This document shows, piece after piece, positions 1,060 through 25,775 of a stretch of 53,635 nt of DNA. The position numbers and the translations under genes are program-made. Position 1 is the first letter of the stretch. The number at the start of each line of letters is the position of its first letter. The notes beneath the pieces were generated by a model that saw only the letters and a list, made by a program, of their open reading frames with translations, had not been told where the DNA came from and made no database searches. This stretch comes from a virus: the UHGV virus genome UHGV-1680239. One strand, 5' to 3'.

Positions 1060-1752
1060 ATGAAGACTCCGAGAGGCATTCGTAATAATAACCCCGGTAA
1101 TCTTGATAAAGGATCACCGTGGCAAGGTCTGGTTGCGAATCCAGACGAACCGCGCTTTTGCACGTTTAAAGACCCTGTTTGGGGGATTCGCGCGCTGGCG
1201 GTGACTCTAATTACCTACCACGATAAACGTCGCGCAAAAGACGGCACAAGTATCGATACCATTCGTGAAGTTATTGAACGCTGGGCACCGCCGAATGAAA
1301 ACAATACTGACGCCTACATTAATGAGGTGTCTAAAGCCGTTGGTGTAACCGCAGACATGATCATCGATCTGCATGATTACGACATCCTTCGACCTTTGGT
1401 TGAGGCAATCATTCGCCACGAGAATGGCCGAGGCCCGCTAAAAACGCTGAACACCTGGTATGCAGCAGAAGTTATTGAGGAAGGTCTGCGTCGAGCTGGC
1501 GTTGTTAAGCCGGTGAAAACCGTGAAGGCTGTTCCTGTAACTAAAGAAACCGCAGGCGCAACTGTTACAGCAGGTATTGGTCTGGCGCAGCTGGCCGATG
1601 TTATGCCGCAGGTTTCCGCTGCTATGGATAAAGCACAAGGTCATATCTCTAGCGGGGATACAGTACGCATCATCTTCGGTATTGCCACTATTGTTGTGGC
1701 AGGATTCATTGCCTGGTCGCAGGTAAGAAAACACCAGAAAGGGATGGTCTAA
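1060..1752 (+). CDS. lysis-module protein, putative muralytic (endolysin-like) enzyme with C-terminal TM helix; family unassigned
   Basis: Position between membrane proteins and spanins; N-terminal RNNNPGNL motif that I associate with phage cell-wall-acting proteins but cannot place in a family; AGGAG RBS 7 nt before ATG 1060. Confidence 0.35.
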   Translation: MKTPRGIRNNNPGNLDKGSPWQGLVANPDEPRFCTFKDPVWGIRALAVTLITYHDKRRAKDGTSIDTIREVIERWAPPNENNTDAYINEVSKAVGVTADMIIDLHDYDILRPLVEAIIRHENGRGPLKTLNTWYAAEVIEEGLRRAGVVKPVKTVKAVPVTKETAGATVTAGIGLAQLADVMPQVSAAMDKAQGHISSGDTVRIIFGIATIVVAGFIAWSQVRKHQKGMV

Positions 1753-1753
1753 T

Positions 1754-2005
1754 ATGCTAGGCAGCCTGATGACAAAGCTAAAAGTTGCTTTGATTACGCT
1801 GGCTGCCGTTCTTTTCGTTCTGGTCGGCGCTTACACGATGGGCGGAAATGCGGCGCGACGAGCAATGGAAGAGAAGGCAAAACAGGAAGACAGGAAACGA
1901 CTTCAAAACACAGTGAAAGTGGTGAATGAGACGAGCAGTAAAATACGTCAGAAAGATGCTTCTGCCGTTCATCGTGAGTTGTATGATAAGTGGGTGCGTC
2001 ATTAA
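1754..2005 (+). CDS. i-spanin (Rz-like)
   Basis: N-terminal TM helix then charged coiled-coil periplasmic domain; immediately upstream of and overlapping a lipoprotein ORF. Confidence 0.55.
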   Translation: MLGSLMTKLKVALITLAAVLFVLVGAYTMGGNAARRAMEEKAKQEDRKRLQNTVKVVNETSSKIRQKDASAVHRELYDKWVRH

Positions 2006-2141
2006 ACCACAAACCACCAGCGTGTTGTTCTGCGATGGGGCTGAGCCTATCTATATCAGCAATAATGATGTAATGACTGAAGAAACCGAACGCCAAATCC
2101 TTTTTCACAATACGATGGGAGAGAGGGTTTGTGGTTGGTGA
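1956..2141 (+). CDS. o-spanin (Rz1-like outer-membrane lipoprotein), overlapping the i-spanin gene in another frame
   Basis: Internal start MLLPFIVSCMISGC gives a signal peptide with lipobox ISG-C; short mature part with a C-terminal Cys; overlapped Rz/Rz1 architecture. Confidence 0.5.
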   Translation: MLLPFIVSCMISGCVIKPQTTSVLFCDGAEPIYISNNDVMTEETERQILFHNTMGERVCGW

Positions 2142-2148
2142 TGTCGAA

Positions 2149-2170
2149 GTTCCCCTCAAATGAGGGGAAC
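2149..2170. terminator. hairpin between convergent genes (candidate bidirectional terminator)
   Basis: GTTCCCCTCAAATGAGGGGAAC palindrome between the Rz1 stop (2141) and the GNAT gene stop (2174). Confidence 0.35.
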
Positions 2171-2173
2171 ACA

Positions 2174-2695
2174 TTATTCTTCGAACAATTTTTCGATAGA
2201 TTTTGTAGGATAGAACAAAGAACGCTCGTTGTTACCAACCAGCTGGATAAAGCCTAAACTTTTATAAAACGCCTTGGCTTTGTCATTTAACGCCTCAACG
2301 AAAAGTCCATGAATGCCTACAGCAAGAGATGCATTGTACACAACGCGCATTGCATGTGTTACAAGCATTGAGCCAAATCCTTGACCTTGAAGAGACTTGT
2401 CCAAAGCCAGCCTACCCAAAGTAACACTTGGAACATTCCGATAAGGAACCTTCTTTTGTTTGCTTCTTGAAGGTAAGGACTCCTTTTCAAAACAACTACC
2501 TGACAAAGTGTAATACCCTAACACTTTTGGCCTTTCTTCTTGAGTGCAAAGCACATAAGCACGAAGAATTTTTCCCTCATGCTGCCTTTTTAAGTGGTTG
2601 ACTAAAAAGGCGTTTAGTGACTCTTCGCCGCAATCAAAACCGTTTAGATCATAATCTTTCTCTCCAGAGAAAATCTCTATCGTCGTATTGCTCAC
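2174..2695 (-). CDS. GNAT-family acetyltransferase toxin (TacT/AtaT/KacT-like)
   Basis: 173 aa; acetyl-CoA-binding motif LQGQGFGSML; lies 7 nt downstream of a DUF1778-type antitoxin gene; GTG start. Confidence 0.8.
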   Translation of the reverse strand: MSNTTIEIFSGEKDYDLNGFDCGEESLNAFLVNHLKRQHEGKILRAYVLCTQEERPKVLGYYTLSGSCFEKESLPSRSKQKKVPYRNVPSVTLGRLALDKSLQGQGFGSMLVTHAMRVVYNASLAVGIHGLFVEALNDKAKAFYKSLGFIQLVGNNERSLFYPTKSIEKLFEE

Positions 2696-2702
2696 GAGTA
2701 AA

Positions 2703-2972
2703 CTACTCCATGCTTTTCAGACGATTAGCAGCTCGTTTCAGCTTATCGTTCGGTGCCGGAGGATTGCTTATAGCATCCATAACCAGATTCCAGGACTCTT
2801 CACTCAGAACCAGTCTTCGATGTTGTTCTATAACCTTTACGGCACGTTCAGATGCACTGCTAACCATAAACTGGGTTATGCTCTGGTTAGACATTGCGGC
2901 AGCTTCCTCGATGATGCTTTTATCGTCATCGGTTAATCTCAAATCGATGCGCTGCTTTTTCAGTGCGGACAT
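2703..2972 (-). CDS. DUF1778-type ribbon-helix-helix antitoxin (TacA-like)
   Basis: MSALKKQRIDLRLTDDDKSIIEEAAA... is typical of this antitoxin family; AGGGGGT RBS before the internal ATG (track ORF extends to 3044). Confidence 0.75.
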   Translation of the reverse strand: MSALKKQRIDLRLTDDDKSIIEEAAAMSNQSITQFMVSSASERAVKVIEQHRRLVLSEESWNLVMDAISNPPAPNDKLKRAANRLKSME

Positions 2973-3291
2973 TTGTACCCCCTGATGGCCTTTGATGTAG
3001 GAAGACCATCGCTCTCCTCTATTCAAACTGAGTTTTCGACTCAAAGATTACTTTAAAGGGCTATAGCCCATTATGTATGCGTCAACAAATTATGTACGGC
3101 ATAACACCGTACTTGTAATATAGAGGTCATTGTTACTTTTTTCAACAGACAAATACAAGCTATGATTGCCAATTGTTAATCACAACCTACCATTTAACCT
3201 TTACACCGCAGCCGTAGGCATTTAGGCTATATCACATATAAGAAAACAAGTTGTTTCAGACGATAATTATATACGCAAAGGGAACTCTCCA

Positions 3292-3960
3292 ATGACCAAG
3301 ATCTTTGTGGTTGGCGGCACAAAGGGCGGGCCTGGCAAATCCACCGTTGCCCAGCAAATTGCCGTTTGCCTGAAAGTCAAAAAGAAGAAGAAGGTTTATA
3401 TTACCGATATAGATATTCAGCGCACGACAACGAGCTGGTGTGAAGACCGTCGACAGAACGAAGACCTTGAGCTGATTCCTTTTGCATACGTTCAGGATGA
3501 CATCATTAAGCACCTAAAATCGCTTCAGGGTAGAGCTGAGTTTGTAGTGGTAGATGCTGGTGGCTTCGACTCCGAAATTCAGCGACAAGCGATGCTGATG
3601 GCTGACGTTATCATTATCCCGCTGCGTCCTAAGCGTCGTGATTTGAAATCTCTGCGTGACATCGATCCTATTATCGACAATGTTCGTAATGTAAACGATA
3701 AAGTGAAGGTCCGCGCGGTCATGAACCAGTGCCCGGCTTTGCCATCACAAGTGTCTCGCATTCTGGCGGCTAAAGAGATTGTTGAGACGTTTGGAATCGA
3801 GTCTGCGCCAGTCAATCTATATAACCGCAACGTCTATGATGATGCGGAAGAGTCTGGTCGTTCTATCTTTGAAATGACCGGTAGCGAGCGCGACAAAAAG
3901 GCGGAAGCCGAGTTTGAAGAATTTGTAGATTATCTGTTGAGTCTGGAGGAAGAAGAATAA
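3292..3960 (+). CDS. parA: ParA/Soj-family partition ATPase
   Basis: Deviant Walker A GGTKGGPGKST; 222 aa; followed by a small RHH-protein gene with overlapping stop/start. Confidence 0.85.
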   Translation: MTKIFVVGGTKGGPGKSTVAQQIAVCLKVKKKKKVYITDIDIQRTTTSWCEDRRQNEDLELIPFAYVQDDIIKHLKSLQGRAEFVVVDAGGFDSEIQRQAMLMADVIIIPLRPKRRDLKSLRDIDPIIDNVRNVNDKVKVRAVMNQCPALPSQVSRILAAKEIVETFGIESAPVNLYNRNVYDDAEESGRSIFEMTGSERDKKAEAEFEEFVDYLLSLEEEE

Positions 3961-4319
3961 TGTCCATGAAAATGGGTGACCTAGCAAAGCGCAAAGAGCC
4001 TGATGCACCGGCTAAGAACACAACTCCTTTGCGCCAACCAGTCAGACCACAGGGACGCCCGACTCGTGGCAAAGAGAAAATTAAAAGCCGCACAATGTCA
4101 CTGGAGGACGAATACTTCGAACTGCTGGAGATGATGAAGTTCATCCCTCGCTTCGAGAAGTTCACTCGTTCTGACGTGATTCGAGCAGCCATTTTCCATC
4201 TGGCAGAGAAGTCACCGCAGGAAATCGAGGACATCGTGAAATTGAATGAGGCGATCACCGCTGCCGATGTCACGATGCGTACCGATGAAATCAAACGAGA
4301 GTTGATGAAGAAAGGTTAA
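3960..4319 (+). CDS. small ribbon-helix-helix protein, probable centromere-binding partition partner (ParG-like)
   Basis: 119 aa, basic disordered N-terminus, RHH-like SLEDEYFELLEMMKFIPRF; translationally coupled to parA. Confidence 0.5.
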   Translation: MSMKMGDLAKRKEPDAPAKNTTPLRQPVRPQGRPTRGKEKIKSRTMSLEDEYFELLEMMKFIPRFEKFTRSDVIRAAIFHLAEKSPQEIEDIVKLNEAITAADVTMRTDEIKRELMKKG

Positions 4320-4322
4320 AAA

Positions 4323-4357
4323 TCATGCATTGGCGCGTACATTGCGCCAATGCATGA
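4323..4357. terminator. palindromic hairpin between convergent genes
   Basis: 13-bp perfect arms TCATGCATTGGCG / CGCCAATGCATGA; on the minus strand it is followed by a T-run, so it likely terminates the 4372..5139 gene. Confidence 0.4.
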
Positions 4358-4371
4358 CTACAGTGTCAGCT

Positions 4372-5139
4372 TTATGCCGCGCTAACACTATGTTCAGTCC
4401 TAACCACCCCAACCTTCACAAAAGGGCTACCGTAGCTTGGTGGCTTCTTGATTAATTTGCCTACATACAGTTTTCTAATATGCTCATCGGCTATTCTGCC
4501 AACAAATTCATAACGTTTTGTGTCGGGGCCAAGAGCTATATCCCTTGTAAAGTACTGCTGAGAACCGGCTTTGACCCAGCATTCAATCTGATAAACTTCC
4601 ATTATCAGCCCACCATATGTAGCGTAGGCATATTTGAGATTCTCGTCTCTTGGAACCTTTGCCCATACGCCACGCGTAGCTTCATATAATGCCAGAGCGG
4701 ACATTCCTGACTTGTAGGTGCTGTTTAGCAGGAAGGCAAGACCGGCGTGCTCAGGAGCAATTTCAGTTTCCTCTTGCAGCACTAAGTGATGGTAGGCGTC
4801 CAGTGATATTCTGCCCATCATGGAACCACTTCCTCGAACCTTATTCGTAAGCTCTCCGACCCCCATAAGGTCGATGCATGTCGCCTCAACAAGTTTGGCT
4901 GTGGTTTCATCCATACCATGACGAAGAATATCTATGCCTAATTTTTTATTAGCCAAAAGTTCTTTGATCCGCATGGATTTGGGAGAGTCATCGGGATACT
5001 TGATGTGATCGAGACAACGAGTCGATTTGCCTTTTCCTATGTAAAACGGTCTTTTCATCTTGTCTTCTGTATCATAGAGACAGTAAACATAGTATTTAGC
5101 CTTATCCAATGATCTCGCGTATACCGATAAATCGTCCAT
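4372..5139 (-). CDS. GIY-YIG nuclease-domain protein with uncharacterised C-terminal domain
   Basis: N-terminal YYVYCLYD...RPFYIGKGKSTR matches the GIY-(10-11)-YIG motif with the downstream Arg; about 150 aa of unassigned C-terminus. Confidence 0.55.
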   Translation of the reverse strand: MDDLSVYARSLDKAKYYVYCLYDTEDKMKRPFYIGKGKSTRCLDHIKYPDDSPKSMRIKELLANKKLGIDILRHGMDETTAKLVEATCIDLMGVGELTNKVRGSGSMMGRISLDAYHHLVLQEETEIAPEHAGLAFLLNSTYKSGMSALALYEATRGVWAKVPRDENLKYAYATYGGLIMEVYQIECWVKAGSQQYFTRDIALGPDTKRYEFVGRIADEHIRKLYVGKLIKKPPSYGSPFVKVGVVRTEHSVSAA

Positions 5140-12945: not shown

Positions 12946-13020
12946 GATGGTGTAGCTCAGCGGTAGAGCAGTTGGCTGTTAACCAACTGGTCGGTGGTTC
13001 GAATCCACCCACCATCGCCA
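12946..13020 (+). tRNA. tRNA-Asn (anticodon GTT)
   Basis: Hand-folded cloverleaf: acceptor GATGGTG/CACCATC, D-arm GCTC-AGCGGTA-GAGC, anticodon loop CTGTTAA, T-arm GGTGG-TTCGAAT-CCACC, encoded CCA. Confidence 0.85.
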
Positions 13021-13025
13021 ATTTA

Positions 13026-13112
13026 GGGGAGTTAGTCCGTAGGGGCAGCGGGGTAGACTGTAAATCTACTGTCATTGCGACTCGGGTGGTTCGACTCCAT
13101 CACTCCCCACCA
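13026..13112 (+). tRNA. tRNA-Tyr (anticodon GTA), long variable arm
   Basis: Acceptor GGGGAGT/ACTCCCC, anticodon stem-loop GTAGA-CTGTAAA-TCTAC, T-loop TTCGACT, encoded CCA; D-arm geometry slightly atypical. Confidence 0.75.
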
Positions 13113-13116
13113 AATT

Positions 13117-13192
13117 GCCGGTTTAGCTCAGTTGGTAGAGCGCCTGCCTTGTAAGCAGGATGTCAGCGGTTCGATCCCGTTAACCGGCACCA
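13117..13192 (+). tRNA. tRNA-Thr (anticodon TGT)
   Basis: Acceptor GCCGGTT/AACCGGC, D-arm GCTC...GAGC, anticodon loop CTTGTAA, T-loop TTCGATC, encoded CCA. Confidence 0.85.
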
Positions 13193-13278
13193 ACACAACA
13201 GGTAAGAGCATTGGGCGAATCGGCGATACTGACCCACAAGCCCGTAAATCGATAGAGTCAGACCAGTGCTCTTACCGT
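13193..13278 (+). repeat. long hairpin element B, abutting the 3' end of tRNA-Thr
   Basis: Arms CACAACAGGTAAGAGCA / TGCTCTTACCGTTGTG with one bulge. Confidence 0.5.
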
Positions 13279-13333
13279 TGTGAGGAAGTGCAGCTCTTTG
13301 AAGCAACCAGAAGATAAGCATCTGGCTTCACAA

Positions 13334-13412
13334 CACAACGATAAGATCATTACGGTTAATCGTCGTTCATGTGCACAATGACTGGTCGAAAGGTAGTGAT
13401 CTTACCGTTGTG
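13334..13412 (+). repeat. long hairpin element C
   Basis: Arms CACAACGATAAGATCA / TGATCTTACCGTTGTG with one mismatch. Confidence 0.5.
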
Positions 13413-13512
13413 ATGAATGCACAGGCTGATGTGCCGCAACTACAGTAGTGCGCGCTTTGCGGGGCTTGCTACAACCCTGTGTCGGAGTTCAGCACCGACC
13501 ATCACAATAGCT

Positions 13513-13599
13513 GGAGAGTAGGGAGCATGGTGCTCAAGCGGTCTTGAAAACCGTCCCATTGCGCAAGCGATGATGGTTCGATTCCATTACTCTCCGCCA
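13513..13599 (+). tRNA. tRNA-Ser (anticodon TGA), long variable arm
   Basis: Acceptor GGAGAGT/ACTCTCC, anticodon stem-loop GCGGT-CTTGAAA-ACCGT, T-arm GATGG-TTCGATT-CCATT, encoded CCA. Confidence 0.8.
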
Positions 13600-24926: not shown

Positions 24927-25490
24927 TTATGCGCATTTCGCAATATCCTTGCGGCGTTTAATCAGTTTCTCAGCAATTTGCTCTATTTCGTTGAAATCTT
25001 TCGAGACGCTGTTTCGAAGCGCCAGATTCCATTTACTCAAAGTTCGGGCATTTTGGACAATCTGATCGCCCTCTTTAAGTCGTCCGTTATCCATGAGCCA
25101 TTCAGCCACATCAGCCCAATCCCACAGAGGCGACTGGCCTTTTATGCGTTGTACAGGGCAAGGGAAGTCGCCGCTTCCGCGCTTACCGTCTTTGAGCAAC
25201 GCCACAGCCTGGCGAGACAGGTCTGTCAGTTCCGCGATATCGCTTAAGCCCACAAGAGCCGAGTCGACGGATTCAACAATTGCACCGATACCGGCTGATT
25301 CAATATTGTCGACCGCAGATGCGATAGCTGCATCAAGTGATTGTGCTTCGCGGTCAAATTCTACATAGACGGAGTTTCCATATGCGCAAATTAGCGCATC
25401 GTCACAGCCGTTTTGGTACAGCGCGTCTTCCAGTCCTTCCGTCTCATACGATACGCCTGAGAGCGTCAGAGTGAAGTTATAAAGCGCCAT
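24927..25490 (-). CDS. two-domain protein with C-terminal HTH-like region (candidate antitoxin/regulator; HicB-like is only a hypothesis)
   Basis: Internal ATG (MALYNF...) preferred over the track's TTG at 25526; lies 25-60 nt downstream of a 74-aa gene on the same strand. Confidence 0.4.
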   Translation of the reverse strand: MALYNFTLTLSGVSYETEGLEDALYQNGCDDALICAYGNSVYVEFDREAQSLDAAIASAVDNIESAGIGAIVESVDSALVGLSDIAELTDLSRQAVALLKDGKRGSGDFPCPVQRIKGQSPLWDWADVAEWLMDNGRLKEGDQIVQNARTLSKWNLALRNSVSKDFNEIEQIAEKLIKRRKDIAKCA

Positions 25491-25550
25491 AGTATTCCTT
25501 TGAAGATAGTTGGACAGTTTCTGCAAAAGGCGGCAATAGCCGCCTTGAAA

Positions 25551-25775
25551 TCATTTACAACGATCAACCATTCGTTTGATCTGTTTGGCATGGTTTTCGG
25601 GATTACCCGGAGTCGACCATACGCTCATTTGGTGAGTTTTGTGTTCACCTTCTGGATTACCGCATCTCAGTCTGCAAAAACAATGTGCAGCACCACCAGC
25701 TGCTACCCAGATCCAGCCTTTACTTAATGCATAGTCAATGGCTGCTTGAATATGCTTATTCGGATGTTGCTTCAT
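25551..25775 (-). CDS. small protein, HicA-like toxin candidate (weak)
   Basis: 74 aa; GW..G.AH ... SVWSTPGNPENHAKQIKRMV loosely resembles the YcfA/HicA pattern; upstream of the partner gene on the same strand. Confidence 0.35.
   Translation of the reverse strand: MKQHPNKHIQAAIDYALSKGWIWVAAGGAAHCFCRLRCGNPEGEHKTHQMSVWSTPGNPENHAKQIKRMVDRCK

Follow-up and report, generated by a model that had tools for sequence, protein, structure and literature searches.

A putative AtaRT/KacAT-clade toxin–antitoxin operon in a cargo slot of an SSU5-like phage-plasmid of Escherichia coli

The virus genome UHGV-1680239 is represented by a stretch of 53,635 nucleotides (nt), referred to here as the window, near the beginning of which two adjacent minus-strand genes encode a small DUF1778 protein and a GNAT acetyltransferase. 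The original prediction for this locus, made from the sequence, was that of an addiction module located beside the partition genes. The locus raises the question of which family of acetyltransferase toxins the pair belongs to, whether it is intact, and what it does for the element carrying it. Comparison with characterised systems indicates that it is very probably an intact type II toxin–antitoxin operon of the AtaRT/KacAT clade, which would act by acetylation of aminoacyl-tRNA. No property tested departs from the definition of the AtaRT/KacAT family.

Identity of the toxin and the antitoxin

The toxin gene encodes a protein of 173 amino acids (aa). The GTG codon at position 2695 is the sole possible start of the full-length protein; the frame has no upstream extension and no useful internal start. 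The product matches the Pfam families Acetyltransf_7 and Acetyltransf_1 (E-values of 5e-8 and 7e-8, both above the cut-off) and the PHROGs acetyltransferase family phrog_1758 (E 3e-52). In a phmmer search against PDB, residues 1–172 were aligned without gaps to AtaT (6gts/6ajm, E 1.4e-79), and KacT was matched with an E-value of 5.6e-75 (5zgn/5xun), while TacT, ItaT-like and other GNAT toxins appeared only from 1e-21 and weaker. Matches of this strength greatly exceed what chance would give. The global identity of the toxin is 68.6% to AtaT and 66.1% to KacT. No AtaT- or KacT-specific NCBIfam model matched the toxin, for which only weak RimI-like models below the cut-off were recorded; as these matches are weak and unspecific, NCBIfam adds nothing to the Pfam and PDB results.

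Since the alignment with AtaT is gap-free, the AtaT residue numbers can be transferred directly to the window toxin. The acetyl-CoA motif, whose general form is Q/R-x-x-G-x-G/A, is complete as Q103-G-Q-G-F-G108, and the catalytic Y144, the counterpart of the KacT tyrosine Y145, is kept. Neither G108 nor Y144 varies among 11 aligned clade members, which come from chromosomes, IncF plasmids, phage-plasmids and viral contigs. In AtaT, Y144 has been shown to be catalytic and the exchange G108D to block the binding of acetyl-CoA; changes at Y85, R95, F30 and L27 reduce or abolish toxicity, and the tRNA acceptor stem is contacted by H34, R37 and R40 of helix alpha-1, by S76–K82 of helix alpha-3, and by Y85 and R95 (PMC7595197). 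The window toxin is identical to AtaT at Y85, R95, F30, L27, H34, R37, S76 and S78, and further at K79, K81, K82, P84, L136 and K165. Most of these residues are invariant across the 11 clade members, H34 and R37 are nearly so, and K79, K81 and K82 vary. Two changes, R71K and K77R, are conservative. The toxin also differs from AtaT by A26S, which lies in the aminoacyl pocket, and by R40E and N41G in the tRNA-contacting helix alpha-1. The alpha-3 residues of AtaT are reported not to be conserved outside the AtaT/KacT clade, and the substrates reported for AtaT are Gly, Trp, Tyr, Phe and initiator Met tRNAs (PMC7595197). The substrates of the window toxin may resemble them.

Residues 8–86 of the antitoxin match the Pfam family PF08681 TacA1, the former DUF1778 (E 3.5e-26). 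Its matches in PDB are KacA (5zgn_A, E 2.5e-41) and AtaR (6ajm_C, E 5.2e-40), both aligned from residue 1, with global identities of 77.5% and 74.2%, respectively. The alignment covers the C-terminal AtaR fragment that was crystallised together with AtaT (6gtq_C, residues 44–88). At the N-terminus, R8, D10 and R12 are identical to the residues with which KacA reads the operator in the KacAT–DNA structure (PMC6698736). The same antitoxin gene of 270 nt, encoding 89 aa, is annotated by NCBI (PGAP) in identical plasmids. Two longer gene models were considered and rejected. A form of 113 aa, starting from TTG at 3044, disagrees with the alignment of AtaR and KacA (88 aa) from residue 1 of the 89-aa form. 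A form of 101 aa is given in the record of Escherichia phage Cyrano, but a 1-nt indel shifts its upstream ATG out of the reading frame in the window. This indel between the two sequences implies that the stretch upstream of 2972 is non-coding, and the Cyrano model should read 89 aa rather than 101 aa.

The original prediction had proposed a GNAT frame of 173 aa located 7 nt downstream of a DUF1778 frame of 89 aa, with an intact acetyl-CoA motif and the TacAT/AtaRT/KacAT architecture, to be checked by profile searches and by alignment of the catalytic residues. Both frames lie on the minus strand at exactly the predicted coordinates, the motif can be read in the toxin, both families are matched in Pfam above the cut-off, and Y144 and G108 are identical to those of AtaT. 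The predicted architecture is borne out and narrowed to the AtaRT/KacAT clade by identities of 66–69% for the toxin and 74–78% for the antitoxin. The structure matches together with the global identities assign the pair to this clade and not just to the wider TacAT-like superfamily.

AtaR–AtaT of enterohaemorrhagic E. coli O157:H7 (PDB 6AJM, 6GTS, 6GTP, 7CHD) has the same gene order as the window pair, proteins of 88 and 175 aa (89 and 173 aa in the window), a gap of 6–7 nt between the genes, and full-length identities of 69% for the toxin and 74% for the antitoxin. The two systems share Y144, G108, most of the listed tRNA-contact residues, and the operator half-sites with their 7-nt spacer. 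They differ in that ataRT is chromosomal, being located between panM and livJ, and has an ATG toxin start and a leader of 26 nt, whereas the window pair belongs to a phage-plasmid, with GTG as the start of its toxin gene and a structured leader of 121 nt, and carries the exchanges A26S, R40E and N41G. KacA–KacT of Klebsiella pneumoniae (PDB 5XUN, 5ZGN) is 66% identical in the toxin and 78% in the antitoxin, has the same R8, D10 and R12, and shows the −10 box TATATT followed by the same palindrome. By analogy with it, the window proteins would form a T2A4 complex and would be regulated by the toxin:antitoxin ratio (PMC6698736). In the kacAT locus examined (L004), the toxin gene begins with ATG, the genes are 10 nt apart, and the leader measures 30 nt. 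TacA–TacT of Salmonella (PDB 5FVJ, 7AK7-9, 6G96) shares the architecture and the acetylation of aminoacyl-tRNA, and PF08681 is named after TacA; TacT, however, belongs to another clade and is much more distant from the window toxin (E 1e-11 to 1e-19, versus 1e-79 for AtaT).

Table 1. Predicted features of the toxin–antitoxin locus (positions in the window)
Feature	Position	Strand	Description
Cargo slot, ~1.05 kb	2134–3184		Terminator-like hairpin, both genes, leader, operator, promoter
G+C-rich hairpin GTTCCCCTCAAATGAGGGGAAC, likely terminator	2149–2170		Between the convergent Rz1 and toxin genes
GNAT toxin gene, AtaT/KacT clade	2174–2695	−	173 aa, GTG start; open reading frame, Pfam, PDB and PHROG matches
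DUF1778/TacA1 ribbon-helix-helix antitoxin gene	2703–2972	−	89 aa, ATG start; PF08681, KacA/AtaR matches
GGAG, likely ribosome-binding site of the toxin gene	2706–2709	−	Within the last antitoxin codons, 10 nt before GTG
Shine-Dalgarno sequence AGGGGG of the antitoxin gene	2978–2983	−	5 nt before ATG; read from sequence
Hairpin GATGGTCTT...AAGGCCATC	2984–3010	−	Minimum free energy folds; the Shine-Dalgarno sequence follows the 3′ arm without a gap
Operator palindrome GTACGG-N7-CCGTAC	3094–3112	−	GTACGGTGTTATGCCGTAC; 4 nt downstream of the predicted −10 box
Sigma-70-like promoter	3117–3145	−	TTGAAA (3145–3140), 17 nt, TATATT (3122–3117); consensus scan

The host element and its cargo slot

As judged from gene content and sequence matches, the replicon of the window is an SSU5-type phage-plasmid of E. 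coli and not a plain plasmid. The locus is 96.9% identical to that of Cyrano (pLF82 of E. coli LF82), and the synteny between the two elements extends over about 49 kb, including genes for holin, endolysin, Rz/Rz1, parA, helicase, primase, ligase, tRNAs, integrase, repressor, polymerase and RepA. The E. coli plasmid ESBL242, a circular molecule of 101.9 kb, matches the locus at 99.8–99.9% identity and encodes identical proteins. All matches of at least 90% identity sit on plasmid records of 62–205 kb, most of them of about 100–120 kb. The phage-plasmid synteny and the circular plasmid match show that the pair resides on an extrachromosomal replicon, which is a property of addiction modules. 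The toxin–antitoxin genes of Cyrano are among the morons transcribed in lysogeny, at 35 and 60 times the local background, and the copy number of Cyrano is 5.5 per cell (PMC9928086, Misson et al.). In the Cyrano record the genes are annotated as "KacT Acetyltransferase-type toxin" and "putative antitoxin". The pair has been annotated before, generically by PGAP and specifically in Cyrano, and it has been mentioned in print. Its identification matters little beyond the precise naming as the AtaRT/KacAT-clade module of an SSU5-like phage-plasmid.

The two genes are located in a slot whose content is exchanged between related elements. Homology to relatives ends at 2123–2138 and restarts at 3185–3186 in every case compared, namely in SSU5, an E. 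coli phage-plasmid with other cargo, a Klebsiella phage-plasmid, and two elements with another toxin–antitoxin type. The counterparts of the slot in the extracted loci lie at 3612–5000 (L002), 1302–2735 (L012), 1291–2468 (L013) and 1479–3000 (L015). The left break falls at or just before the end of Rz1, the stop codon of which is at 2141, and the slot as a whole separates the lysis genes from parA. It is occupied by one of at least three cassettes: the window pair, a second GNAT/DUF1778 type, and two plus-strand genes of the SSU5_031/032 type. The second GNAT/DUF1778 type was seen in E. coli pYPE3-114k (L013, 1357–2154) and in a Citrobacter freundii plasmid (L014, 1357–2154). Its antitoxin is about 89% identical to that of the window (83% at the nucleotide level), and its toxin of 167 aa is about 61% identical and gives no blastn match. 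The abrupt shift in divergence at the gene boundary suggests a mosaic or a much faster evolution of the toxin. Within the type of the window itself, identities are 93.6–94.2% for the toxin versus 97.8–100% for the antitoxin. The cargo of the SSU5_031/032 type has no Pfam or PADLOC match and corresponds to phrog_2594 and phrog_3307, which are families of unknown function.

At an identity of at least 90%, the window allele was found in about 145 PLSDB plasmid records and in about 152 records of complete E. coli genomes. The flanks of the slot are common to 600–740 plasmid records, and only about a fifth to a quarter of the related phage-plasmid records contain the module; SSU5 lacks it. Homologues with 67–70% nucleotide identity adjoin repB on conjugative IncF plasmids, and the AtaRT/KacAT clade as a whole was found in 50 species of Enterobacterales. 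The chromosomal ataRT, 66% identical to the window pair at the nucleotide level and represented by the E. coli O157:H7 locus (L003, 1477–2277), occurs in roughly 30% of the complete E. coli genomes (about 1,626 out of 5,426). Two clade copies occur together in at most 71 genomes, versus about 90 expected if they were independent, a comparison too rough and too much confounded by phylogeny to carry weight.

The divergent neighbour of the antitoxin gene, at a distance of 319 nt, is parA (3292–3960, plus strand). The proximity to parA had been put forward as a sign of post-segregational killing. The gene is indeed there, but the argument is a weak one: the slot carries unrelated cargo in relatives, so that the adjacency to parA is a property of the slot and not of the module.

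Transcription signals and the leader

The predicted promoter is the best sigma-70-like site on the minus strand, with 10 of 12 consensus matches. In most of the aligned homologous loci, hexamers beginning with TTGA and TAT are found at the same distance from the palindrome; those of ataRT deviate (TTGTAG and TATGCT). Downstream of their −10 regions, ataRT of O157:H7 and kacAT of Klebsiella likewise have the palindrome GTACGG-N7-CCGTAC, with identical half-sites. It was seen in each of the ten loci compared, which come from plasmids, phage-plasmids and chromosomes and include three IncF-plasmid homologues, and in 48 of 50 clade loci taken from genomes of different Enterobacterales species. The complexes KacA4KacT2 and AtaR4AtaT2 have been shown to bind a palindrome that spans the transcription start (PMC6698736). 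The position of the window palindrome fits this published operator, and binding of the complex as well as regulation by the toxin:antitoxin ratio would be expected here as well.

The antitoxin gene precedes the toxin gene on the minus strand, and the gap of 7 nt between them (TTTACTC) fits bicistronic, coupled expression from what would be a single transcript. The GTG start of the toxin gene is common to all phage-plasmid alleles examined and to one IncFIB plasmid allele. An ATG start is found in ataT, in kacT and in the IncF alleles examined except for the one of IncFIB. Downstream of the toxin gene, the hairpin GTTCCCCTCAAATGAGGGGAAC is a perfect 10-nt inverted repeat and forms a terminator-like site on the plus strand. 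As no T-run follows it on the minus strand, its use by the toxin–antitoxin operon is uncertain.

These features can be combined into a mechanism modelled on that of the prototypes. The single promoter would drive expression of the antitoxin and then of the toxin. The antitoxin would dimerise through its N-terminal ribbon-helix-helix domain, while its C-terminal part would wrap the toxin to form the T2A4 complex. This complex would block the toxin, bind the operator overlapping the transcription start, and repress its own operon. Once the antitoxin is degraded and no longer replenished, free toxin dimer would be left. With acetyl-CoA, the dimer would acetylate the alpha-amino group of aminoacyl-tRNAs, making them unusable in translation, and growth would stop.

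The leader, measured from the end of the palindrome to the ATG of the antitoxin gene, comprises 121 nt in the window (2973–3093), versus 26 nt in ataRT and 30 nt in kacAT. Immediately upstream of the Shine-Dalgarno sequence it is predicted to form the hairpin GATGGTCTT...AAGGCCATC; it also holds the 12-nt palindrome GGGCTATAGCCC and a small stem TGAGT...ACTCA. Neither ataRT nor kacAT has this hairpin or a leader of such length. A total of 43 distinct leaders that extend 22 nt or more upstream of the Shine-Dalgarno sequence were folded one by one, with shuffled sequences as a control. In 24 of them, a helix of at least 6 bp ends no more than 3 nt from the Shine-Dalgarno sequence, versus 4.7 expected from the shuffles. 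The 24 leaders contain 15 different stems, and several further hairpins visible by eye are skipped by the strict helix criterion. In one sub-class of leaders the loop TTCCTACATCAC is kept under the changing stems GATGGCC, GACCGCCC, GATTGCCC, GACCATTT and GGCCGCC. Besides the window, loci of Enterobacter soli, Lelliottia, Salmonella, Providencia, Morganella and Mangrovibacter belong to this sub-class. A formal covariation count was dropped, since the MAFFT alignment puts two sequence groups one column out of register; the folds of individual sequences with shuffles, which replace it, are a weaker test. An Rfam scan of positions 1900–3400 with E-values up to 1 returned three sub-threshold chance matches, none of them in the leader downstream of the operator.

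The obvious guess is that the leader acts at the RNA level, either on mRNA stability or on antitoxin translation. Long-leader alleles include that of the window and those on IncF plasmids and viral contigs, and in the phage-plasmid alleles the long leader goes together with the weak GTG start. A tentative proposal, which we consider rather improbable in its entirety, is that the hairpin gives the long-leader alleles an additional post-transcriptional control and that the slot between Rz1 and parA is an exchange site for three competing, mutually exclusive cassettes. If this were true, the hairpin, by setting the mRNA half-life or the translation of the antitoxin, would determine the ratio of toxin to antitoxin as well as how fast toxin is released once the element is lost. 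To our knowledge, neither the hairpin abutting the Shine-Dalgarno sequence nor the three-way cassette slot is described in the literature searched; both are minor points. Two further ideas about the leader were given up. A pseudoknot between the loop sequence UUCCU and the Shine-Dalgarno sequence has an unfavourable geometry, as the complementary stretch lies in the 5′ part of the loop and the stem is followed at once by the Shine-Dalgarno sequence. The use of leader length as a marker separating chromosomes from mobile elements is unsupported, as lengths of 14–165 nt occur among the genome loci, which are mostly on draft contigs of unassigned replicon.

Biological role and neighbouring genes

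We infer toxicity, neutralisation, tRNA targets and biological role of the window pair from its relatives. The best single reading of the role, to which we give an even chance, is that post-segregational killing by the module stabilises a phage-plasmid of about five copies per cell. A role in addiction is made plausible by GmvA–GmvT of the Shigella flexneri plasmid pINV, a pair of the acetyltransferase type that is likewise located on a large low-copy replicon with partition systems. This GNAT pair stabilises pINV through post-segregational killing that depends on Lon (PMC6519299). It is active mainly at 21 °C, and its replicon is a plain plasmid. On a phage-plasmid, the textbook case of prophage-plasmid addiction is the type II pair Phd–Doc of P1, which is a persistent gene of the P1 group (PMC7969092). 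Phd–Doc is unrelated to the window pair in protein family and in toxin chemistry. The phage-plasmid of the window offers a natural test case for the question of whether a tRNA-acetylating toxin stabilises such an element.

Several points weigh against this picture. What is said of the window allele with regard to toxicity, neutralisation, substrates and stabilisation is based on homology. The exchanges A26S, R40E and N41G mean that the substrate range may differ from that of AtaT, and the GTG start together with the long structured leader means that the control of expression may differ from that of the prototypes. With regard to the role, the phage-plasmid also possesses another annotated toxin–antitoxin pair, hicAB, in addition to parA and its partner gene. 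Furthermore, most relatives, SSU5 included, lack the module, which is consequently dispensable for maintenance of the family. The candidate second pair is formed by the genes at 24927–25526 and 25551–25775 (minus strand), which by synteny correspond to the genes annotated in Cyrano as HicB antitoxin and HicA toxin.

The partner of parA would be the gene at 3960–4319 (plus strand; start at 3966 according to PGAP), which overlaps the stop codon of parA. The Cyrano record labels it "RelE/ParE putative toxin", but no Pfam family matches it, and it belongs to phrog_5111, a PHROG of unknown function. Its position suggests a ParA partner (centromere-binding) protein rather than a toxin. Past the parA operon, about 1.4 kb beyond the slot, lies a second variable site. 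In the window it is occupied by a gene for a GIY-YIG protein of 255 aa (4372–5139, minus strand) that matches the PADLOC model PD-T4-3 (E 1.3e-23); Cyrano has the unrelated CYRAN_30 at this place, and other relatives have a gene for a P-loop NTPase-fold or DUF2971 protein.

Instead of stabilising the phage-plasmid, the module might serve mainly in conflict with other elements. An infecting phage would free the toxin by shutting off host transcription or by degrading the antitoxin, leading to abortive infection or superinfection exclusion, or competing phage-plasmids that carry another slot cassette would be excluded. The slot, for which at least three cassettes are known, is a hotspot of cargo, the PD-T4-3-like gene lies just past the parA operon at a place where relatives have other accessory genes, and SSU5-group phage-plasmids have been reported to carry defence systems including PD-T4-3 (bioRxiv 10.1101/2025.09.12.675607). 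The expression of the module in lysogeny is also like that of a moron. On the other hand, no PADLOC model matches the toxin or the antitoxin at E-values up to 0.01, and the literature search found no case of phage defence by a GNAT/DUF1778 pair; nor is a trigger known. We regard a primary function in conflict as unlikely.

An equally improbable explanation is that of a selfish cassette, which is kept since its own loss is counter-selected and which brings no net benefit to the phage-plasmid. The effects on the host, such as growth arrest and antibiotic tolerance, as with KacT, or stress tolerance in macrophages, would then be by-products. The patchy occurrence of the module among near-identical phage-plasmids and the sharp common boundaries of the cassettes agree with this explanation, as does the frequency of the clade on chromosomes, where no replicon needs to be stabilised. 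KacT has been reported to induce antibiotic tolerance (PMC9431474). Against it stands the conservation of the module, which is kept at 92–100% identity with intact frames in about 150 records. It is also hard to separate from post-segregational killing, because one and the same property yields both.

The least convincing alternative is a decayed or disarmed pair, with a toxin that is inactive or neutralised by chromosomal AtaR so that most hosts would show no phenotype. Toxin output could be reduced by the weak GTG start, and a start-codon change is discussed as lowering the toxicity of KacT4 (PMC9431474). About 30% of complete E. coli genomes have ataRT, whose AtaR is 74% identical to the window antitoxin with a similar C-terminal toxin-binding part, and cross-neutralisation between chromosomal and plasmid GNAT/ribbon-helix-helix pairs has been seen in Klebsiella, although most of the non-cognate Klebsiella and Salmonella pairs tested do not cross-neutralise (PMC9431474). 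Since no residue known to be required for AtaT toxicity has been lost, neither frame is interrupted in any allele examined, and the GTG start, being common to all phage-plasmid alleles examined and to one of IncFIB, looks maintained and not accidental, we consider this explanation very unlikely. Apart from the state of the pair itself, the antitoxin of the chromosomal relative might still disarm the window toxin in those hosts that carry it, which would amount to anti-addiction.

Two minor observations concern genes with a relation to the slot or to the toxin. An open reading frame of 71 aa at 1926–2141 (plus strand) overlaps the end of Rz and has a signal peptide and a lipobox-like ISGC, as would be expected for the full-length Rz1 o-spanin, of which no more than the final 39 codons are annotated in the Cyrano record. 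Four tRNA genes, Asn-GTT, Tyr-GTA, Thr-TGT and Ser-TGA, are located at 12946–13599. The tRNA-Tyr gene lies within 13023–13497, a stretch that has no match in the comparison with Cyrano. Tyr-tRNA and, weakly, Asn-tRNA are among the substrates of AtaT. The tRNA-Tyr of the phage-plasmid has an A5-U68 pair inside the run of G-C pairs that AtaT requires in the acceptor stem, and it is pure speculation that this tRNA might escape the toxin of its own element.

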